16,938 bases of DNA from Candidatus Thorarchaeota archaeon (GTDB lineage: Archaea > Asgardarchaeota > Thorarchaeia > Thorarchaeales > Thorarchaeaceae): NCBI GenBank assembly GCA_048882325.1, contig JBHLRS010000057.1:1-16938 (forward strand), written 5' to 3'. This document shows, piece after piece, positions 1 to 7,361 of the stretch. The notes under the pieces were generated by a model. It did no database searches. It worked only from the letters and a program-made list of their open reading frames with translations, and was not told the origin of the DNA. Each line of letters starts with the position of its first letter. The first letter of the stretch is position 1. The translations under genes and the position numbers were made by a program.

Positions 1-718
1 CAAAGCCAACAACCAAGAATCCCGGAATCTCCTCTCTATAGGCTAGAAGTTTCTCATCCTTGATGGGTTGACCCCTATAGAGATCTGCGATGACCTCTCG
101 GAAAGCAAACATTTGCAATCCAACAGAAAAGAGTCTCTCAAAGTAGTAGGTAAGCGGTCGATGATAAGCCATCACTCGCGTGTCCTTGTACTTTGGATGC
201 GGAATCTCCCTCACTGACATATACTGTCGCATCTTCAAGAAGTATCCCTCGTCATCCTCGGTGCGCTTTGCGTACGAGAATGGGTGTGGAATCGCAAACA
301 CTAGTTTTCCCCCACCTTTCAACACTCGACTACATTCCTGAATTGTTGCGTCTATCTCTTCAATGTCATGGAAACCGAAAGTGGAAACAATGCAGTCCGT
401 TGAGGCGTCAGGAATCTCAGACATTGCACCCGAGCTGCAATGAATATACTTGATACCTAAAGACTCTGACTTCTCAGATTCCTGAGCAATCTCAAGCATC
501 TTCTGCGAGAGGTCTACACCAATAACCTGAGCTCCCTTCTTGGCAAGGATTCTGGAAAGATATCCCTGACCACATGCGAGGTCGAGTACAGTCTTACCCT
601 TGAGGTCACCTAGAATTGCAAAAATGACTGGGTTGACAAAGTTCCGGTGATATGAGTCACCTGTGTCACCAACTGTCTTATGATAATCCTCTGCAACCTC
701 ATCCCATGATGCTGGCAT
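1..718 (-). CDS. Class I SAM-dependent methyltransferase (3' end truncated by window edge)
   Basis: Not in the ORF track. Manual translation from ATG at 718: MPASWDEVAEDYHKTVGDTGDSYHRNFVNPVIFAILGDLKGKTVLDLACGQGYLSRILAKKGAQVIGVDLSQKML...RVLKVGGKLVFAIPHPF...YHRPLTYY...EIPGFLVVGF. Contains motif I (VLDLACGQG) and post-I (GVDLS). SD-like GGTGGTGA upstream. Confidence 0.92.
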   Translation of the reverse strand, partial: MPASWDEVAEDYHKTVGDTGDSYHRNFVNPVIFAILGDLKGKTVLDLACGQGYLSRILAKKGAQVIGVDLSQKMLEIAQESEKSESLGIKYIHCSSGAMSEIPDASTDCIVSTFGFHDIEEIDATIQECSRVLKGGGKLVFAIPHPFSYAKRTEDDEGYFLKMRQYMSVREIPHPKYKDTRVMAYHRPLTYYFERLFSVGLQMFAFREVIADLYRGQPIKDEKLLAYREEIPGFLVVGF

Positions 719-854
719 GGTTTAGATTCACCACCGTCAGCATATGTTCGTTCTGCCAGCTATGTTGATTCTTCAAGTCTTTGGAAACGAAAATAACTGC
801 TCAATCAACAACGAGATATGGAACTGTGGAATGATGAATACGAGTGAATCTATC

Positions 855-1229
855 ATGTCAGTGAGAGGAATCGGAGGCGTCTTCTTCAAATCAAAGGATC
901 CTAAAGCTCTCGAGAAATGGTATATCGAGAACCTTGGACTGAAACCCGACAAGGAGGGTTATATCTACTTCATGTGGTCAGACTTGAGGAAACCCGGATA
1001 CACATTATGGGGACCATTTCCTGAGGATACCAAATACTTCAAGCCTAGCGATGCATCGTGGATGATTAACTTCGTTGTGGATGATATAGAGAAGATGGTG
1101 TCCACGCTCAAGAAGAACGGTGTGGAAGTGGATGAGCGGGGTGTTCAAAAAACTGAAGAAGGGAAATTCGCCTGGTTCATAGACTTGGAGGGAAATAAGA
1201 TCGAATTATGGGAACCAGCTGATAAGTAA
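855..1229 (+). CDS. VOC/glyoxalase-bleomycin resistance family protein
   Basis: MSVRGIGGVFFKSKDPKALEKWY...WMINFVVDDIE...GKFAWFIDLEGNKIELWEP is a typical VOC pattern. Start moved from 744 to ATG 855, which has GAGTGA upstream and is where the family pattern begins. Confidence 0.9.
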   Translation: MSVRGIGGVFFKSKDPKALEKWYIENLGLKPDKEGYIYFMWSDLRKPGYTLWGPFPEDTKYFKPSDASWMINFVVDDIEKMVSTLKKNGVEVDERGVQKTEEGKFAWFIDLEGNKIELWEPADK

Positions 1230-1247
1230 CAGATCACTATGTCAATT

Positions 1248-1598
1248 TCAGTCGTCCTTACTGCTCGATTGGATTGCTTTGAATGCAAGATGTTTTGCCG
1301 CCTCACGTTTCTTTGTGATGTCGTTAGCCTGTTTTGCAATGGAGTCAAACAGGTCCTTACGATCCACGATTGCCTTTTCGACAAAGGAGGCTACAACTTC
1401 AGACCGACTCTTGAAAATCTCCAATTCAACAAGAGCATCGAGAATTTCAACGATGTCAGTACTTAGTCGGGTCATTACAGAGATCTCGCGATTTTTAAGA
1501 CCATACTTGTCCCTCTCGAATCGACCGAGTAGTTCCTCTCTAAGACTTAATTCCTCTTCTTCTTTTGGGTGGACTTTCTGTTCTGAGATTCTAAACAC
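1248..1598 (-). CDS. Ribbon-helix-helix (CopG/MetJ-like) DNA-binding protein with C-terminal helical extension
   Basis: ISVMTRLSTDIVEILDALVELEIFKSRSEVVASFVEKAI fits the RHH pattern: alternating beta strand, LDxLV helix, then F-x-SRSE helix. Start codon uncertain. Confidence 0.7.
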   Translation of the reverse strand: MFRISEQKVHPKEEEELSLREELLGRFERDKYGLKNREISVMTRLSTDIVEILDALVELEIFKSRSEVVASFVEKAIVDRKDLFDSIAKQANDITKKREAAKHLAFKAIQSSSKDD

Positions 1599-1634
1599 CT
1601 CATTCTCTACGGCACTATTGATTTATGGGTGCAG

Positions 1635-1678
1635 CTTTATAAGGTTTCATGTAAGGGAATATCTGTAACAGTGTTACA
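1635..1678. promoter_or_regulatory. Divergent promoter: TATA-like box plus perfect 7-1-7 palindrome (candidate operator)
   Basis: CTTTATAAGG at 1635-1644 and TGTAACA-G-TGTTACA at 1664-1678, between the RHH and ARPP-1 genes. Confidence 0.65.
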
Positions 1679-1688
1679 TTAACTTGTA

Positions 1689-2681
1689 ATGGCGGAAAAC
1701 CCGTTGTCAGCAACAAATGCAACAAACCAAGTCCGCGCCTTAGCGGAAGAAATTCTACAGAGAACCAGCTTCAGCCTTGAGGATCCGGTTGCACACCATG
1801 GTCTCTCGCTTGTACCAATTGTGCCAGTTAGTGAGTCAGAGAGTGATGAAACATACCTCAACGCAGCTGAAGCCCTAGAGGCAGGTGTACTTTCAATCAC
1901 CGAGGCTGGTGATGCTGTCAATACAATTCTTGCACGCAATTCAGGAAAGGAACCTGTGCTCATAGAGGAGTCCGAGGTTCTCTTAGCATCCAGCAGTCAG
2001 GACCGTATAGTTGTGTCCAGTGTCATCATCCAACCCGGAGAAGAGATACGAATACCCGTCAAATGTGTCCATGCGCCCCATTCACTCAATAGAGGAGCAG
2101 GGTTTCAATCACTAGGAGCAGGATCACTGGCACTCAAACGAAAAATCAGGAGAATGAAGTATCAGTCAATCATGGCTGATGTTGATCACTACATCCCTGA
2201 AACTGCGGTTGATCAGACAGAGGTCTGGGATGAGGTCGAACGGTACAGCAAGGCATTGGGGCTTGACGACCCAACCAAGTACACTGACGCGCTTGCAAGG
2301 GTGCAGGAGAAGGCTAGTGAGGTTGCAAAGGAGATCAGGGAGAGTCTACCCGAAGACACATGCGGAGTCATTGTGGTTGACTCAAATGGCGAGGCAATAG
2401 CTTTTGAGATGTATAGGAACGCCCAGGCGTTCCGAAAGCGTCTGGGTTTCGTGGAGTCCTTTGCTGTAGAACACTATGATGTAGAGAAGACACCACTTCA
2501 AGATGAAGCGGCATCAGCAAGTGCACTTAAACTTCTAGAGACCCTGAAGGACATCAATGAGACGGATGTCGCTTCAAAGGATGACTCAGACAATGCAGTG
2601 ATTGGGGTCCGGGAACTCAAGGGAGAGGCCTTGCTCAGAAGGGACCTCAGATCAGTACTCTATTGCTCCTTAGGCAAGTAG
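1689..2681 (+). CDS. ARPP-1 / DUF6569-like domain protein
   Basis: YLNAAEALEAGVLSITE...VNTILARNSGKEPVLIEESEVL...QDRIVVSSVIIQPGEEIRIPVKCV...QTEVWDEV matches the recalled family pattern (YLxLxEAL, N-x-G-x-x-PVL, QNR, IPVxCVE, QxxVW). Confidence 0.75.
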   Translation: MAENPLSATNATNQVRALAEEILQRTSFSLEDPVAHHGLSLVPIVPVSESESDETYLNAAEALEAGVLSITEAGDAVNTILARNSGKEPVLIEESEVLLASSSQDRIVVSSVIIQPGEEIRIPVKCVHAPHSLNRGAGFQSLGAGSLALKRKIRRMKYQSIMADVDHYIPETAVDQTEVWDEVERYSKALGLDDPTKYTDALARVQEKASEVAKEIRESLPEDTCGVIVVDSNGEAIAFEMYRNAQAFRKRLGFVESFAVEHYDVEKTPLQDEAASASALKLLETLKDINETDVASKDDSDNAVIGVRELKGEALLRRDLRSVLYCSLGK

Positions 2682-2711
2682 ACAGTTTCATTGAAAGCAC
2701 GCGATACCAAG

Positions 2712-2746
2712 CTGTGGGAGATTCTCTCCTACAGTCTTTCTTTTTT
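2712..2746 (+). terminator. Stem-loop plus T-tract downstream of the ARPP-1 gene
   Basis: CTGTGGGAGA-TTC-TCTCCTACAG (one G:U pair) followed by TCTTTCTTTTTT. Confidence 0.65.
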
Positions 2747-2828
2747 ATAATTGATAAAGGGCCATCATGTCTAGGATGTCCATTTTCAGCATATTAGGTT
2801 CCACGTGCGCAGCAGAGGGTGATAAAGG

Positions 2829-3608
2829 CTAGTCGACTGGACCTGTGGACGCGATTTGGTGCTGAATCTTCTCGATCTCTTTGATGAAACGGTCAGCAGC
2901 TTGAGCAAGCTTCTCGAGAATATCAGGAGAAGGATTACTCCCGATCACCGAAGGTAGGTTCAAGAGAGTCTTGAAGAGATTCCGAAGTGATGGCGGGACT
3001 TCCATACGGCGATCTAGCATAGGGAGGAAAGGCGGGGGAAAAGGAGTGAACCCCTGAACAATCTTCTCTTGAAGTTCGCCACTCTGGTCAATCCGGTTCT
3101 GAAGAAACTTCTGACCTCTCTCTGTGAGCTCATACCTACGAGTTCGTCCATCCTCGTCAGGTAGCTCTTGAGTGAGTCCATCCTGAAGTAGGCTCTTCAG
3201 TAAGGGGTACATAGAACCAGGTTTGGGTTTCCAGCGGCCTCCCATCTCTTCTTCTATTGCTGAAGTCAGTTCAGCACCAGACATGGGACGTTCCGTGAGT
3301 TTGTGAAGAACTCGATATCTTAGATAACCCTTTGGAACTTTGGCCGTGTGCTGAATCCACTTCCTCAAAGGATCGATAGCCTGACCAAACTCTTCCATGA
3401 AGATCTTCAGACGCTCCTCAGAAAGATAGTATCTCTTACCTTTCTGCACAATTGGGGATTTGTCCGGTTGGATTGGGGGTTTGATGTGTTCAAATTCTTC
3501 AGGGAAGCCAAGCTCTTTCCATGTCAGTGCCTTCTCAGGCGTAGTAGCTCCTTTCTCGCGAAAGGCATCTATAAGCCGTCTAAAGGGACTAAACATGTCT
3601 GTGCTCAT
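2829..3608 (-). CDS. PadR-family transcriptional regulator with extra N-terminal domain
   Basis: KGYLRYRVLHKLTERPMSGAEL...WKPKPGSMYPLLKSLLQDGL...RRYELTERG is a PadR wHTH, preceded by an ~85-aa extension (FREKGATTPEKALTWKELG...RYYLSE). Confidence 0.88.
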   Translation of the reverse strand: MSTDMFSPFRRLIDAFREKGATTPEKALTWKELGFPEEFEHIKPPIQPDKSPIVQKGKRYYLSEERLKIFMEEFGQAIDPLRKWIQHTAKVPKGYLRYRVLHKLTERPMSGAELTSAIEEEMGGRWKPKPGSMYPLLKSLLQDGLTQELPDEDGRTRRYELTERGQKFLQNRIDQSGELQEKIVQGFTPFPPPFLPMLDRRMEVPPSLRNLFKTLLNLPSVIGSNPSPDILEKLAQAADRFIKEIEKIQHQIASTGPVD

Positions 3609-3773: not shown

Positions 3774-4802
3774 ATGCAAGCGATAGAAACAGGAGATGGT
3801 TTTTTGCAGTATCGCAGAGTTGGAAAGAGTGGATTGAAAGTCAGTGAGATTTCTCTTGGTTCCTGGCTGACATATGGCGGCACAGTGGAGAATGAGGTGG
3901 CCAAGAAATGCATGGCCACTGCGTTGGAAAATGGAGTCAACTTCATTGACGCTGCGGAGATCTACGCAGGTGGGAAGGCTGAGGAGGTCATTGCTCAGTT
4001 CTTCAGGGATGAGAATGTCAGCAGAAGGAACTTGGTTATCTCAAGTAAGGTGTTCTGGCCTACAAGCCAAGACATCACTGACTGGGGCAACAGTAGAAAG
4101 AACATCATGAATGCTATTGATGATTCTCTCCAACGATTGAACATGGACTATATCGACATCTACTTTCTACACAGGTATGACCACACAACACCTGTGAAAG
4201 AAACTGTGATGGCCATGGATGACCTAATCAGGGCTGGCAAGATCCGATATTGGGGGACCTCTGTCTGGACTGCAGCACAGCTTGAGCGAGCCAATGCTGT
4301 GGCAAAGGAACTTGGTGCTTACCAACCCATTGTTGAACAACCCCTATACAACATGCTATCAAGGTTCATTGAAGTTGAAATCATGAAAGTGGCAAAGACC
4401 CACGGCATGGGCTTCTCAGTCTTCAGTCCATTAGCGCAGGGTCTTCTCACAGGTAAGTACAACGACGGAGTACCAGAAGGCAGTCGCGGTGCAACATCAA
4501 CATGGTTGAATCGATACCTAACTGAGGAGAACTTTGCCAAAGTTCGAAGACTCAGTGAGATTGCATCATCATTGGATATCACTACAGGCCAACTGGCACT
4601 TTCTTGGATTCTCAGGCGTCCAGAGGTATCGACAGCCATCGTAGGTGCAACAAAGCCAGAACATGTTATTGAGAATGTAGGAGCATCGGGTGTTACTCTT
4701 TCGAATGACACACTCGAGCAGATAGAAGAGATTTTGGAAAATACTCCAACATGGCCCTCTAACTATGGACCCAACATATACTACAAGGATAAAATGAGGT
4801 GA
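3774..4802 (+). CDS. Aldo/keto reductase (Kv-beta-like subfamily)
   Basis: YRRVGKSGLKVSEISLGSWLTYG, FIDAAEIYAGGKAE (catalytic D, Y), SSKVFW (K), YFLHRYD (H), YWGTS, FSPLAQGLLTGKY. Confidence 0.95.
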   Translation: MQAIETGDGFLQYRRVGKSGLKVSEISLGSWLTYGGTVENEVAKKCMATALENGVNFIDAAEIYAGGKAEEVIAQFFRDENVSRRNLVISSKVFWPTSQDITDWGNSRKNIMNAIDDSLQRLNMDYIDIYFLHRYDHTTPVKETVMAMDDLIRAGKIRYWGTSVWTAAQLERANAVAKELGAYQPIVEQPLYNMLSRFIEVEIMKVAKTHGMGFSVFSPLAQGLLTGKYNDGVPEGSRGATSTWLNRYLTEENFAKVRRLSEIASSLDITTGQLALSWILRRPEVSTAIVGATKPEHVIENVGASGVTLSNDTLEQIEEILENTPTWPSNYGPNIYYKDKMR

Positions 4803-4812
4803 AAAACAGTGT

Positions 4813-4838
4813 GTGCTGAGAACAAAATCTCTCAGCAC
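4813..4838. terminator. Perfect 9-bp stem-loop between convergent genes
   Basis: GTGCTGAGA-acaaaatc-TCTCAGCAC. Followed by a T-rich run on the plus strand and a TTTTT run on the minus strand. Confidence 0.6.
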
Positions 4839-4847
4839 TTCTATATT

Positions 4848-5012
4848 TCACAGGAGGATGTAGACAGCTACAAGTCCTGTGATGTAGATAACATGAAAAA
4901 TCACAAGAGCCAATCTAGGCACCTGTATTTCATATCGTTTCACAATCGCCCCCGCAACTCCACATAGGATGACGGAGACAAGGAAGAGCAAGAACATCAA
5001 CACGATTGACAT
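4848..5012 (-). CDS. 54-aa two-TM membrane micro-protein (paralog of the upstream ORF)
   Basis: Not in the ORF track. MSIVLMFLLFLVSVILCGVAGAIVKRYEIQVPRLALVIFHVIYITGLVAVYILL*. ATG lies 2 nt after the upstream stop, with SD GGAGGAG. Ungapped similarity to 5015-5290. Confidence 0.8.
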   Translation of the reverse strand: MSIVLMFLLFLVSVILCGVAGAIVKRYEIQVPRLALVIFHVIYITGLVAVYILL

Positions 5013-5014
5013 CA

Positions 5015-5290
5015 CTACATCTCCTCCAAACGGGTTAGCAGCCTCTGCTTCTTTCCAAAATAGTAGACAAGTCCACTAATGTAGCTAATATGGAAGACTA
5101 GCCAGAAGAGATGACCAGGAAGGGTCATACTCCCCGCCAGCAAGTTCATTGCAATAGCACAGACTGTTATTGATACAAACAAGACGAAAAGGAACATCTT
5201 GATTGGACTACGTTGTGTGCCATTAGTGCCAACATAATCAGGCTCTGACACAACAGAGGGCATAGATCGAATAATGAAATGGTAATCCAT
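5015..5290 (-). CDS. Small two-TM membrane protein
   Basis: Two hydrophobic segments (MFLFVLFVSITVCAIAMNLL; LFWLVFHISYISGLVYYF) and a basic tail KKQR. True start may be a later Met. Confidence 0.75.
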   Translation of the reverse strand: MDYHFIIRSMPSVVSEPDYVGTNGTQRSPIKMFLFVLFVSITVCAIAMNLLAGSMTLPGHLFWLVFHISYISGLVYYFGKKQRLLTRLEEM

Positions 5291-5327
5291 TGTAGTTCAC
5301 AGGGAGTTAATTCACACAGAACTACAA
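5290..5327. promoter_or_regulatory. 9-bp inverted repeat with 20-nt spacer
   Basis: TTGTAGTTC (5290-5298) and GAACTACAA (5319-5327), between the micro-protein pair and the divergent Lrp gene. Confidence 0.5.
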
Positions 5328-5407
5328 AACAGCATGGCAATCCCAAGCTTCAAAAAATGCATCTGATTTAAGTCGAGGTTGTTCTTATTGAATCAAACAC
5401 TGCAAAA

Positions 5408-6358
5408 ATGAAAAATCCTCTGGTGAATACATTGGACCATCTCGACAAGGCATTGTTTCAGGAGCTCAGTAACAACTGTCGTGTTTCATTCACCGATCTC
5501 AGCATAAAGTATGATGTTTCAGTCAACACGATAAAGAATCGAGTTGAAAATATGATGAGCGACGGAATCATCGTAGCCTTCGATGTTCAACTCAAGCTAA
5601 GTTTGTATAATGCAAGTTTCGCTCTAGTAATTCTTCGTTTGAAGCGATTATTTACGGAACGGGAAAAAGATGAGATAGGTCATCACCAGTATATCACAAG
5701 TGTTTCAACTGGACTACAGCTCGACGGGCAGGTTGTCATCATCTATCGGAACAATGACGAGCTAAATGAGGTCATTGAATTTCTGAGATCCAATGAGAAT
5801 GTAAAGAACCTAGAGGTATTCCAGACCCTTCCACCACCGACATCATCAGTCAGTCTTCCAGTTTCAAAGGAGCTTGATGCTCTGAAGAAGATTGACTGGC
5901 AGATTCTCCAAAAGCTTCGCTGGAAAGGAAGAATGGGCATCAAGGACCTTGCAAAGGAGTTGGGTCGTTCAGCACCCATGGTGAGAAAACGACTGGACTT
6001 CATGAGAAACCAAGGTTTCCTTTACGAAACCATACTCACAAACATAGGTGTTGTTGGCCAAGGGTTTGTCATCAATTTTGGACTAGAGCTTCCTGAAATC
6101 TCTAACGAGGACCAGCTAATCATGGATCAGGAGTTGAGGTCTATGTTTGAGGATAGTTTCATTGTGAGCTGGAAGGTTGTTGATAGACCCATCATATTCA
6201 TAACTTTCCAGGTGGACAGTGCAACTGAAGCTCAAGAGATTCAGTCGCGCCTTCTGTCCAAATATCCAGAGCACATCTCCATTACGCAAGCCATCAGCGG
6301 GAAATGGAAATACTACAGGGACTTCAGAGATCAGATCCTTGAGGACCACTCCCGATAG
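5408..6358 (+). CDS. Tandem (double) Lrp/AsnC-family wHTH transcriptional regulator
   Basis: Two HTH units, LDHLDKALFQELSNNCRVSFTDLS...VSVNTIKNRV and LKKIDWQILQKLRWKGRMGIKDLAKELGRSAPMVRKRL, each followed by a RAM-like alpha/beta segment. Confidence 0.88.
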   Translation: MKNPLVNTLDHLDKALFQELSNNCRVSFTDLSIKYDVSVNTIKNRVENMMSDGIIVAFDVQLKLSLYNASFALVILRLKRLFTEREKDEIGHHQYITSVSTGLQLDGQVVIIYRNNDELNEVIEFLRSNENVKNLEVFQTLPPPTSSVSLPVSKELDALKKIDWQILQKLRWKGRMGIKDLAKELGRSAPMVRKRLDFMRNQGFLYETILTNIGVVGQGFVINFGLELPEISNEDQLIMDQELRSMFEDSFIVSWKVVDRPIIFITFQVDSATEAQEIQSRLLSKYPEHISITQAISGKWKYYRDFRDQILEDHSR

Positions 6359-6359
6359 T

Positions 6360-7361
6360 CTACTTGAAGAGTTGGAAAAGGCCTGCAACAATCACAAAGA
6401 TTGGACCAATATAGATACCAGCCCAAACAAAGAGAGCAATGAATCCAATAGCAATCAAAGATATTTTCTGACTCCGCTTGCTTTCCCAATCTTCACCATG
6501 AACTATCCGGAGAACAGCAATTCCCAGAAGTAGTGGGGTGATGATGAAAATCATTGATACTATTGCAGTCCAATTGAATGGAGCCTGTATTAGTGAGAGT
6601 GTCATCTGGTAAGCAAATGAGAAACTAGAACCAAGTATCAAAAGGCCTCCAATAGTTCCAATCAGTGATAGAACATTCTCTCTACCGATTGCACTACGAC
6701 GACGTACTAATAGGAAGATCAATCCTAAAATAAGTGGCAGTAGCATTGGTAGAAGAACTAGCAGAAGGCTTTGGCCAGTCCACATTATGATTGTCATCGC
6801 CATGGGTGGTACCAAAATCCATGAAACCAGAGTATAAACCTCAACATAACCCGTGACAAATGCATATCTCCCGCTTGTTGATTCCTCATAGACTCCAATA
6901 TAGTAAGTTCCCGTGGCAGGAGCACTCATGTTGAGATTAACAACATTATACTGACTAATAGGGGTAAAGCCCTCGTACTCTGGTTCTAAAGGGCTGGCTG
7001 GAATCACCATGACTCCTGCACCCACAGGGATTTCTAATCCTGTTGGATGTGCGCCCTGATCTGTCACATTTGGACCCATCAACACAAGACCAGGTGTGAA
7101 CCCTCTGTCTCCTTCTTGAATTGGCACGTTCAGCATGAAGCGGATTCGATCTCCTTCTGTTGCGTCGAATGAGTAGTAATGTATCTCACCCGCATCAAGT
7201 TCCGAGTAGTAGAACCAAGATTTCCAAGGATCGATGACCTCAGTTGCAGTTCCAAGGGTTGTCCCATCATCTGGCACTTTAGGAATGTGAGCATCTGTGA
7301 TAGTAATTAAGAGTGATAATGAGAAGAAGAATGCTAGTATCAAGAGCAGTTTACGGTTCAT
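6360..7361 (-). CDS. Exported beta-sandwich domain fused to a C-terminal multi-pass membrane domain
   Basis: Signal peptide ending TDA|H, then a beta-rich region (HYYSFDATEGDRI, APATGTYYIGVY, GRYAFVTG, PPC-like), then about 5-6 TM helices. Confidence 0.75.
   Translation of the reverse strand: MNRKLLLILAFFFSLSLLITITDAHIPKVPDDGTTLGTATEVIDPWKSWFYYSELDAGEIHYYSFDATEGDRIRFMLNVPIQEGDRGFTPGLVLMGPNVTDQGAHPTGLEIPVGAGVMVIPASPLEPEYEGFTPISQYNVVNLNMSAPATGTYYIGVYEESTSGRYAFVTGYVEVYTLVSWILVPPMAMTIIMWTGQSLLLVLLPMLLPLILGLIFLLVRRRSAIGRENVLSLIGTIGGLLILGSSFSFAYQMTLSLIQAPFNWTAIVSMIFIITPLLLGIAVLRIVHGEDWESKRSQKISLIAIGFIALFVWAGIYIGPIFVIVAGLFQLFK

Follow-up and report, generated by a model that had tools for sequence, protein, structure and literature searches.

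Two adjacent genes, here called A and B, were found in the window, the whole stretch of 16,938 nucleotides that was analysed. The observation that they encode paired membrane proteins was confirmed, far beyond chance. Judging by signals in the DNA, A and B are real, translationally coupled paralogs. The reading preferred here is that their products form a regulated antiparallel hetero-oligomer with a functional cluster of Cys, His, Ser and Tyr residues in the middle of the membrane; its probability was put at about 0.5.

A coupled pair of paralogous genes

The genes, and the signals that lie at their ends, are as follows.
5015-5290, minus strand: gene A, an ORF of 91 aa encoding a two-helix membrane protein
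4848-5012, minus strand: gene B, an ORF of 54 aa encoding a paralog of the A hairpin
5021-5027, minus strand: GGAGGAG, the SD-like box of B, within the last codons of A (L-E-E) and 8 nt 5' of the B ATG
4813-4838, no strand assigned: a 9-bp perfect inverted repeat, GTGCTGAGA / TCTCAGCAC, followed on each strand by T-runs, in the gap where B and an aldo-keto reductase gene converge

It had been proposed in the original prediction that a 54-aa ORF at 4848-5012 started 2 nt after the stop codon of A and was preceded by a GGAGGAG SD sequence. The coordinates, the spacing and the box were all found to be correct. The start ATG of B is at 5012, and an alternative GTG at 5015 overlaps the TAG of A. 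The arrangement recurs in the family: each of the 12 loci has a GGAGG-like box at the equivalent place ahead of the B start, and in 11 of them the A stop and the B start are between -1 and +5 nt apart. In the twelfth locus, A was longer and overlapped B by 65 nt. A 109-aa form of A was observed in two species (L010, positions 1471-1797, plus strand, and protein P0027); its frame enters B by 65 nt, and this overlap encodes a conserved extension that contains Cys and His. The conserved E-V-E-like C-terminus of A is, at least in part, a protein shadow of the SD-like box of B. Beyond the other end of B, the inverted repeat at 4813-4838 looks like a terminator shared by both directions of transcription.

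Of 24 aligned B orthologs, 23 were 54 aa long and one was 55 aa long, and the pairwise dN/dS of B within the genus was 0.08-0.31. Because these values are combined with a GGAGG-like box in every locus, a nearly fixed length and tight coupling to A, B can be regarded as a real, translated gene under purifying selection. The small ORF on which the original prediction depended is thus conserved.

A and B had also been described as paralogs that align without gaps, and this was borne out. BLASTP aligned them with 17 identities over 48 positions (E = 1e-5), and in a gapless comparison 13 of 51 positions were identical (p = 2e-4 in a composition-preserving shuffle). When 12 A and 12 B sequences were aligned together, no gaps arose across the hairpin. 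Strings of DNA common to the two genes, at 4871 and 5068, had been taken for traces of the duplication. The strings do exist, but their interpretation as relics of a recent event was rejected. Because A and B have reached saturation at synonymous sites (dS of approximately 2.7; third-position identity 17/51), the strings reflect common codon choice and merely encode identical residues (Y-I and G-L-V). In a tree of the hairpin core, which has little resolution since it is built on 51 columns only, A and B parted on a single branch with support of 79/71. This topology is consistent with one old duplication, and the sequences indicate that the duplication is older than the split of at least three genera.

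The distribution of the pair was studied by several searches. Twenty-three metagenomic homologs of A were found, with 58-100% identity. Six-frame searching of related genomes yielded 12 loci, in three genera, at which a B-like ORF comes immediately after an A-like one. When 400 genomes of the phylum were scanned in six frames, the family profile was detected in 16 of the 86 genomes of one Promethearchaeota (Asgard) family. Conserved pairing was seen here as well: of the 16 genomes that gave a hit, 15 had A and B next to each other, one of them at the end of a contig. The pair was also present in two further metagenomic contigs of sufficient length. In the sixteenth genome (G007; L040, positions 1474-1677, plus strand), B was found without A, and the adjoining regulator gene was without an intact N-terminal HTH part; this site is possibly a decaying locus. 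The scan of the 314 genomes outside the family gave no convincing match to A or B; three matches there, with E values of 3e-4 to 1e-3, were short or contained stop codons and were rejected. The A-B family is narrow and patchy in its distribution.

A profile of 12 A and 12 B sequences was compared with 1.84 billion representative proteins. Of the 31 matches obtained, approximately 28 clusters were real, and all of these were either A-type (59-115 aa) or B-type (54-55 aa). Three long matches, in which 7-13 short repeat-like stretches were aligned, were not counted as members. Neither fused forms nor single-gene members with weak charge bias were found in this search, nor were links to other families. 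Therefore, of the homologs envisaged in the original prediction, the conserved pairs were found and the single dual-topology or fused forms were not. Since no single-gene weak-bias or fused member was seen, the dual-topology ancestor is undocumented and the usual evolutionary signature of dual topology is incomplete.

The pair had not been assigned to a known family, and none was matched in Pfam, NCBIfam, PHROGs, PADLOC, the sequences of PDB or the profile search. The Pfam search covered the proteins of the window and the 24 aligned members; for A and B, it gave nothing above cutoff and no recurrent family. SMR (PF00893), CrcB/Fluc (PF02537) and DUF606 gave no match to A, B or the 24 members at E values up to 0.1-1, and NCBIfam, PHROGs and PADLOC gave none to A or B. 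The best E value was 0.26 for the family profile against PDB sequences and 5.6 for the A model against PDB in Foldseek. In the ESM Atlas, only unnamed bacterial clusters were obtained, at 0.86, which is the chance level. The literature search returned reviews of dual-topology proteins, none of which covers the A-B family. Taken together, A and B fit the description of an undescribed, very small and narrowly distributed family of the inverted-paralog-pair kind.

Conserved residues, charge bias and predicted orientation

In the gapless core alignment, Ser, Cys and His were invariant in both A and B, and Tyr was nearly so, being replaced by Phe in one metagenomic B. The conservation of Cys and His that had been proposed from the two window sequences is therefore a property of both proteins across the family. 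The motif of helix 1 is S-x3-C, and that of helix 2 is His, usually followed by x2-Y. The C-x22-H spacing was fixed in 71 of the 71 family sequences examined. In the window, the residues are S40 and C44 (helix 1) and H67 and Y70 (helix 2) of A, and S13, C17, H40 and Y43 of B; each protein has exactly one Cys.

Models of both proteins were built with AlphaFold2 from the family alignment. In the model of A, residues 1-28 were disordered and were followed by a helix (29-51), a short uncharged loop and a second helix (57-90), which ends in a basic tail (KKQR..R). The mean pLDDT was 77 and reached approximately 90 across the hairpin. The model of B (mean pLDDT 89.6) consisted of a helix (3-27), a loop and a second helix (33-53), with almost no tails. 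Judging by the hydrophobic spans, Ser and Tyr would lie near the middle of the helices, and Cys and His would lie 3-4 residues toward the loop.

The distribution of Lys and Arg was determined after each sequence had been anchored on C-x22-H, and the bias was expressed as the count in the tails minus the count in the loop.
A-type, n = 49: mean Lys+Arg 2.4 in the N-tail, 0.1 in the loop and 2.8 in the C-tail; bias from +2 to +11
B-type, n = 22: mean Lys+Arg 0 in the N-tail, 3.8 in the loop and 0 in the C-tail; bias from -2 to -5

The two ranges did not overlap in the 71 sequences. The charges of the window proteins are as they had originally been described: A has Lys and Arg on both tails and none in the loop, and B has them solely in its loop, KRYEIQVPR. 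In addition, A carries Lys or Arg directly at the start of helix 1, and Asp or Glu is often found at positions 2-4 of B. According to the positive-inside rule, segments rich in Lys and Arg predict the cytoplasmic side of the membrane. By this rule alone, both ends of A and the loop of B are predicted to be cytoplasmic. Because the bias was opposite in every member (49 A and 22 B), the opposite orientation that had been predicted for the window pair appears to be a trait of the whole family, and an antiparallel pair, a prediction that agreed with each computational test of orientation applied, is the best-supported topology. The known antiparallel pairs YdgE/YdgF and YdgQ/YdgL are marked by the same charge pattern (PMC3962082), and a dual-topology architecture has been described for Fluc channels (PMC3755343).

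The following model is proposed. A and B would be two subunits of one small membrane complex, produced in equal amounts from one transcript owing to translational coupling. They would be inserted upside-down relative to one another, with the loop of A and the very short ends of B outside. One A and one B would pack into an antiparallel four-helix bundle whose pseudo-twofold axis lies in the plane of the membrane; the complex would consist of one such bundle or several. Near the midplane of the bilayer, the invariant Ser of helix 1 and the Tyr of helix 2 would form a Ser/Tyr ring, and Cys and His would be located approximately one helical turn toward the loop side of each subunit. A polar track would then cross the hydrophobic core, with the Cys/His of A in its outer half and the Cys/His of B in its inner half. 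Such a track would most likely serve to bind or conduct a small cation such as a soft metal or protons, or to sense a signal of that kind. Expression of A-B would be set by a divergent double Lrp/AsnC-like regulator acting via a TTGCCA...GTAGTT box at the transcription start, and the cytoplasmic tail of A, which carries a P-D motif, would contact a cytoplasmic partner, possibly this regulator. In this model, we infer the orientation, the hetero-oligomer, the depth of the residues, the ligand, the role of the operator and the partner of the tail.

Some considerations argue against parts of the model. If A and B are antiparallel, a depth difference of approximately 10 Å would separate their Cys/His pairs, which would then not combine into a single Cys2His2 site. 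For a transporter, a total of four helices would be a small number. The genome that has B and no A, beside a damaged regulator gene, speaks against the A-B complex.

The divergent regulator, the P-D motif and rival readings

The following features lie on the upstream side of A.
5408-6358, plus strand: divergent regulator of 316 aa with two Lrp/AsnC-type winged-HTH units (residues 9-55 and 158-206)
5366-5371, minus strand: TATA-like TTAAAT, a candidate promoter element read from the sequence
5319-5340, minus strand: conserved DNA box TTGCCATGCTGTTTTGTAGTTC (TTGCCA...GTAGTT), a candidate operator, approximately 28 nt downstream of TTAAAT and upstream of A

Two Pfam models matched the regulator above cutoff, HTH_24 with 59.5 bits and HTH_AsnC-type with 49.5 bits. 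The NCBIfam models LysM, AsnC and Lrp matched below their cutoffs, with LysM aligned over residues 9-134, and no Pfam match to a RAM domain was reported. The regulator was adjacent and divergent to A-B in 12 of 12 loci, with 34-79% identity. The intergenic region between it and A is 117 nt long in the window. TTAAAT or TTATAA was found at the equivalent place in related loci, and each of the 12 A-B loci has kept the TTGCCA...GTAGTT box, including those whose proteins are only approximately 25% identical. In loci of paralogous regulators, a similar box follows TTATAA, in the variants TGGCCAATGTTTCTTCTAT or TTGCCAATCTTTCTTGTAT. No pairs were predicted by RNAalifold for the 5' leader and box region of A. 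Because the box is conserved and no RNA fold was found, it was taken to act at the DNA level, at the predicted start of transcription; it is most likely the operator of the regulator.

The 3' half of the box, TTGTAGTTC, is perfectly complementary to 9 nt that enter the start codon of A (inverted repeat 5290-5298 / 5319-5327). Apart from the window, only locus L008 has this repeat intact; L006 has part of it, and the remaining loci lack it. Considering this distribution and the RNAalifold result, a conserved RNA structure in the leader of A was rejected.

Two further genes adjoin the locus. An aldo-keto reductase gene (3774-4802, plus strand) is convergent with B and is a neighbour of the pair within this genus only. 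Its best model was of the Kv-beta type (potassium channel beta subunit) and scored 239.6 bits, where the cutoff is 365.4. The other gene, beyond the regulator as seen from A-B, is at 6360-7361 on the minus strand; its 333-aa product has a signal-like N-terminus, several membrane helices toward the C-terminus and a weak match to the PPC domain. It was kept at that place in the congeners L006, L007 and L061.

The N-terminal tail of A (residues 1-28) contains a Pro-Asp pair, P17-D18, which was invariant in 37 A sequences. Since the third codon positions of these residues vary, the constraint acts on the protein. Paralogs of the regulator, with approximately 36% identity, were found in other genomes of the family. 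Some of them are divergent to a CPBP/Rce1-like membrane protease (PF02517) of approximately 300 aa (L056, positions 543-1439, minus strand; L062, positions 1081-2004, plus strand; L060, positions 487-1440, minus strand), and this module was present in 9 of the 86 genomes of the family. The CPBP proteins have an N-terminal peptide that resembles the tail of A and in which P-D is invariant (...SDPDEV... versus ...SEPDYV...); between an A-type and a CPBP protein, BLASTP gave E = 3e-6 over the P-D region. A-B and the CPBP partner occur in nearly complementary sets of genomes, with G018 as the only one to have both. Related regulators are also divergent to a four-helix protein of approximately 142 aa that belongs to no known family (L064, positions 1896-2321, minus strand; L059, positions 2574-2993, plus strand; L065-L068). 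It was found in two genomes of the family that has A-B and in several of a second Asgard family, and it carries ...EDPDDEF... in its first loop. As a homolog of A or B, this protein was rejected, because hhalign aligned the P-D motif alone (E = 0.17, not significant). These observations suggest that members of the regulator family act jointly with membrane partners, either by means of an acidic P-D motif or in combination with it.

Because A-B has a dedicated divergent regulator and a motif in common with the CPBP proteases, sensing or signalling must be taken as a serious alternative to transport, and such a role for A-B is about as plausible as transport. It might be supposed further that A-B is mainly a sensor or tether for the regulator, with the P-D tail binding the double Lrp-like protein and the Cys/His cluster sensing redox, metal or lipid; this would be compatible with either topology. 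The finding that three unrelated membrane partners (A, the CPBP protein and the protein of approximately 142 aa), each with an acidic P-D motif, are divergent to regulator paralogs argues for it, as do the constraint on the motif at the protein level and the near-complementary distribution of the A-B and CPBP genomes. However, plain transcriptional control would explain a divergent regulator equally well, the resemblance of the protein of approximately 142 aa extends to the motif only, and B is without any cytoplasmic tail. Considering both sides, a role mainly as sensor or tether was judged rather unlikely.

A parallel A-B heterodimer was also considered. It would bring two Cys and two His to one depth, where they could act as one Cys2His2 site for a metal or cofactor, or where the two Cys could form a redox-sensitive pair. 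The gapless core does place Cys and His at matching positions in both hairpins, and a Cys2His2 tetrad is a classic set of Zn and Cu ligands. This arrangement conflicts with the Lys+Arg bias, which was opposite in all 71 sequences without overlap, and with the features of B, which is nearly tail-less and often acidic at positions 2-4, as would be expected of translocated ends. A parallel arrangement was therefore considered distinctly improbable.

It is very improbable that A and B are a holin-like or toxin-like pair that damages the membrane, with the regulator as its repressor. With its two helices, its predicted cytoplasmic ends and its basic C-terminal tail, A resembles a class II holin in outline, and there was a weak Pfam match to the LydA holin family (PF16083; E = 0.05), which at 14 bits was below the cutoff of 28.4. 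Against this stand the lack of PHROG and PADLOC matches and of any Pfam family recurring among the 24 members, and a neighbourhood that consists of the regulator and the aldo-keto reductase, with no lysin or viral genes nearby. Moreover, invariant Cys and His and a strictly paired paralog are atypical of holins. That B is non-functional, or that A and B are independent, is hardly credible: B is very short and was missing from the ORF list, and one genome has B only, but purifying selection, the nearly fixed length of 54 aa, the SD-like box, the tight coupling, the presence in B of the residues invariant in A and the co-occurrence in 15 of 16 genomes all argue against it. Even taken together, these last two readings were given only a small probability.

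Comparison with known systems

As an antiparallel hetero-oligomer, A-B would resemble the paired SMR proteins (EbrAB and MdtIJ/YdgEF), which are likewise encoded by two adjacent, tightly spaced or overlapping homologous genes for small membrane proteins with opposite Lys/Arg bias. The paired SMR proteins are taken to form an antiparallel heterodimer (PMC3962082, PMC9574504). Unlike A and B, which have two helices and the S/C/H/Y residues, SMR subunits have four helices and a conserved membrane Glu; the A-B family has no sequence match to SMR and no single-gene dual-topology members. In heterodimeric Fluc/CrcB, small antiparallel subunits, encoded by adjacent paralogs in some organisms, are related by a twofold pseudo-symmetry in the plane of the membrane (PMC3755343). 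A-B shares with these pairs the adjacent paralogs of opposite charge bias, whereas Fluc has four helices and other conserved residues, and A-B has no sequence match to it and no fluoride riboswitch. For DUF606, duplication followed by divergence of the charge bias led to oppositely oriented partners, according to the summary of Lolkema et al. (2008) in PMC3962082. In that summary, DUF606 proteins occur as single, paired and fused forms with approximately five helices each, whereas A-B was found in the paired form only. The subunits of the inverted pairs given as examples in PMC3962082 have three to six helices.

Cytochrome b559 (PsbE/PsbF) also consists of small, adjacent, paralogous membrane subunits, each of which contributes one intramembrane His to a site that they share. 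It differs from A-B in that its subunits are single-helix, parallel and heme-binding, whereas those of A-B have two helices, are predicted to be antiparallel and contain an additional invariant Cys. Two-helix metal importers of the MerF/MerE type have vicinal or paired cysteines in their helices and occur in the context of mer operons. An assignment of A-B to this type was rejected, since A and B have one Cys each and no mer genes were found in the window.

With regard to the regulator, Lrp/AsnC-controlled divergent exporter operons are known from C. glutamicum (lrp-brnFE) and B. subtilis (azlB-azlCD). In these, as in the A-B locus, an Lrp-type regulator is divergent from or beside a two-gene membrane operon. 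However, the exporters of those operons are larger and show no sequence relationship to A or B, the regulator of A-B is a tandem double unit, and no link to amino acids was found. A-B comes from Asgard archaea, a group in which small membrane proteins have hardly been studied, and it points toward an undescribed system of regulator and membrane partner, characterised by a double Lrp-like protein, a common DNA box and a common P-D motif.

Oppositely oriented paralog pairs are textbook intermediates in the evolution of internally symmetric transporters and channels. To our knowledge, the pair predicted here would be the smallest inverted pair. It may tentatively be proposed, at somewhat less than even odds, that A-B is the smallest natural module of inverted topology, with a symmetric Cys/His-Ser/Tyr-Cys/His track, and one output of an Asgard-specific double-Lrp/P-D signalling system. 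If this is true, a conserved pair of 2+2 helices would set a new lower size limit for such modules. Having one Cys and one His in each subunit, it would also be a very small system in which to study how proteins insert into the membrane, assemble in inverted fashion and bind ligands within it.
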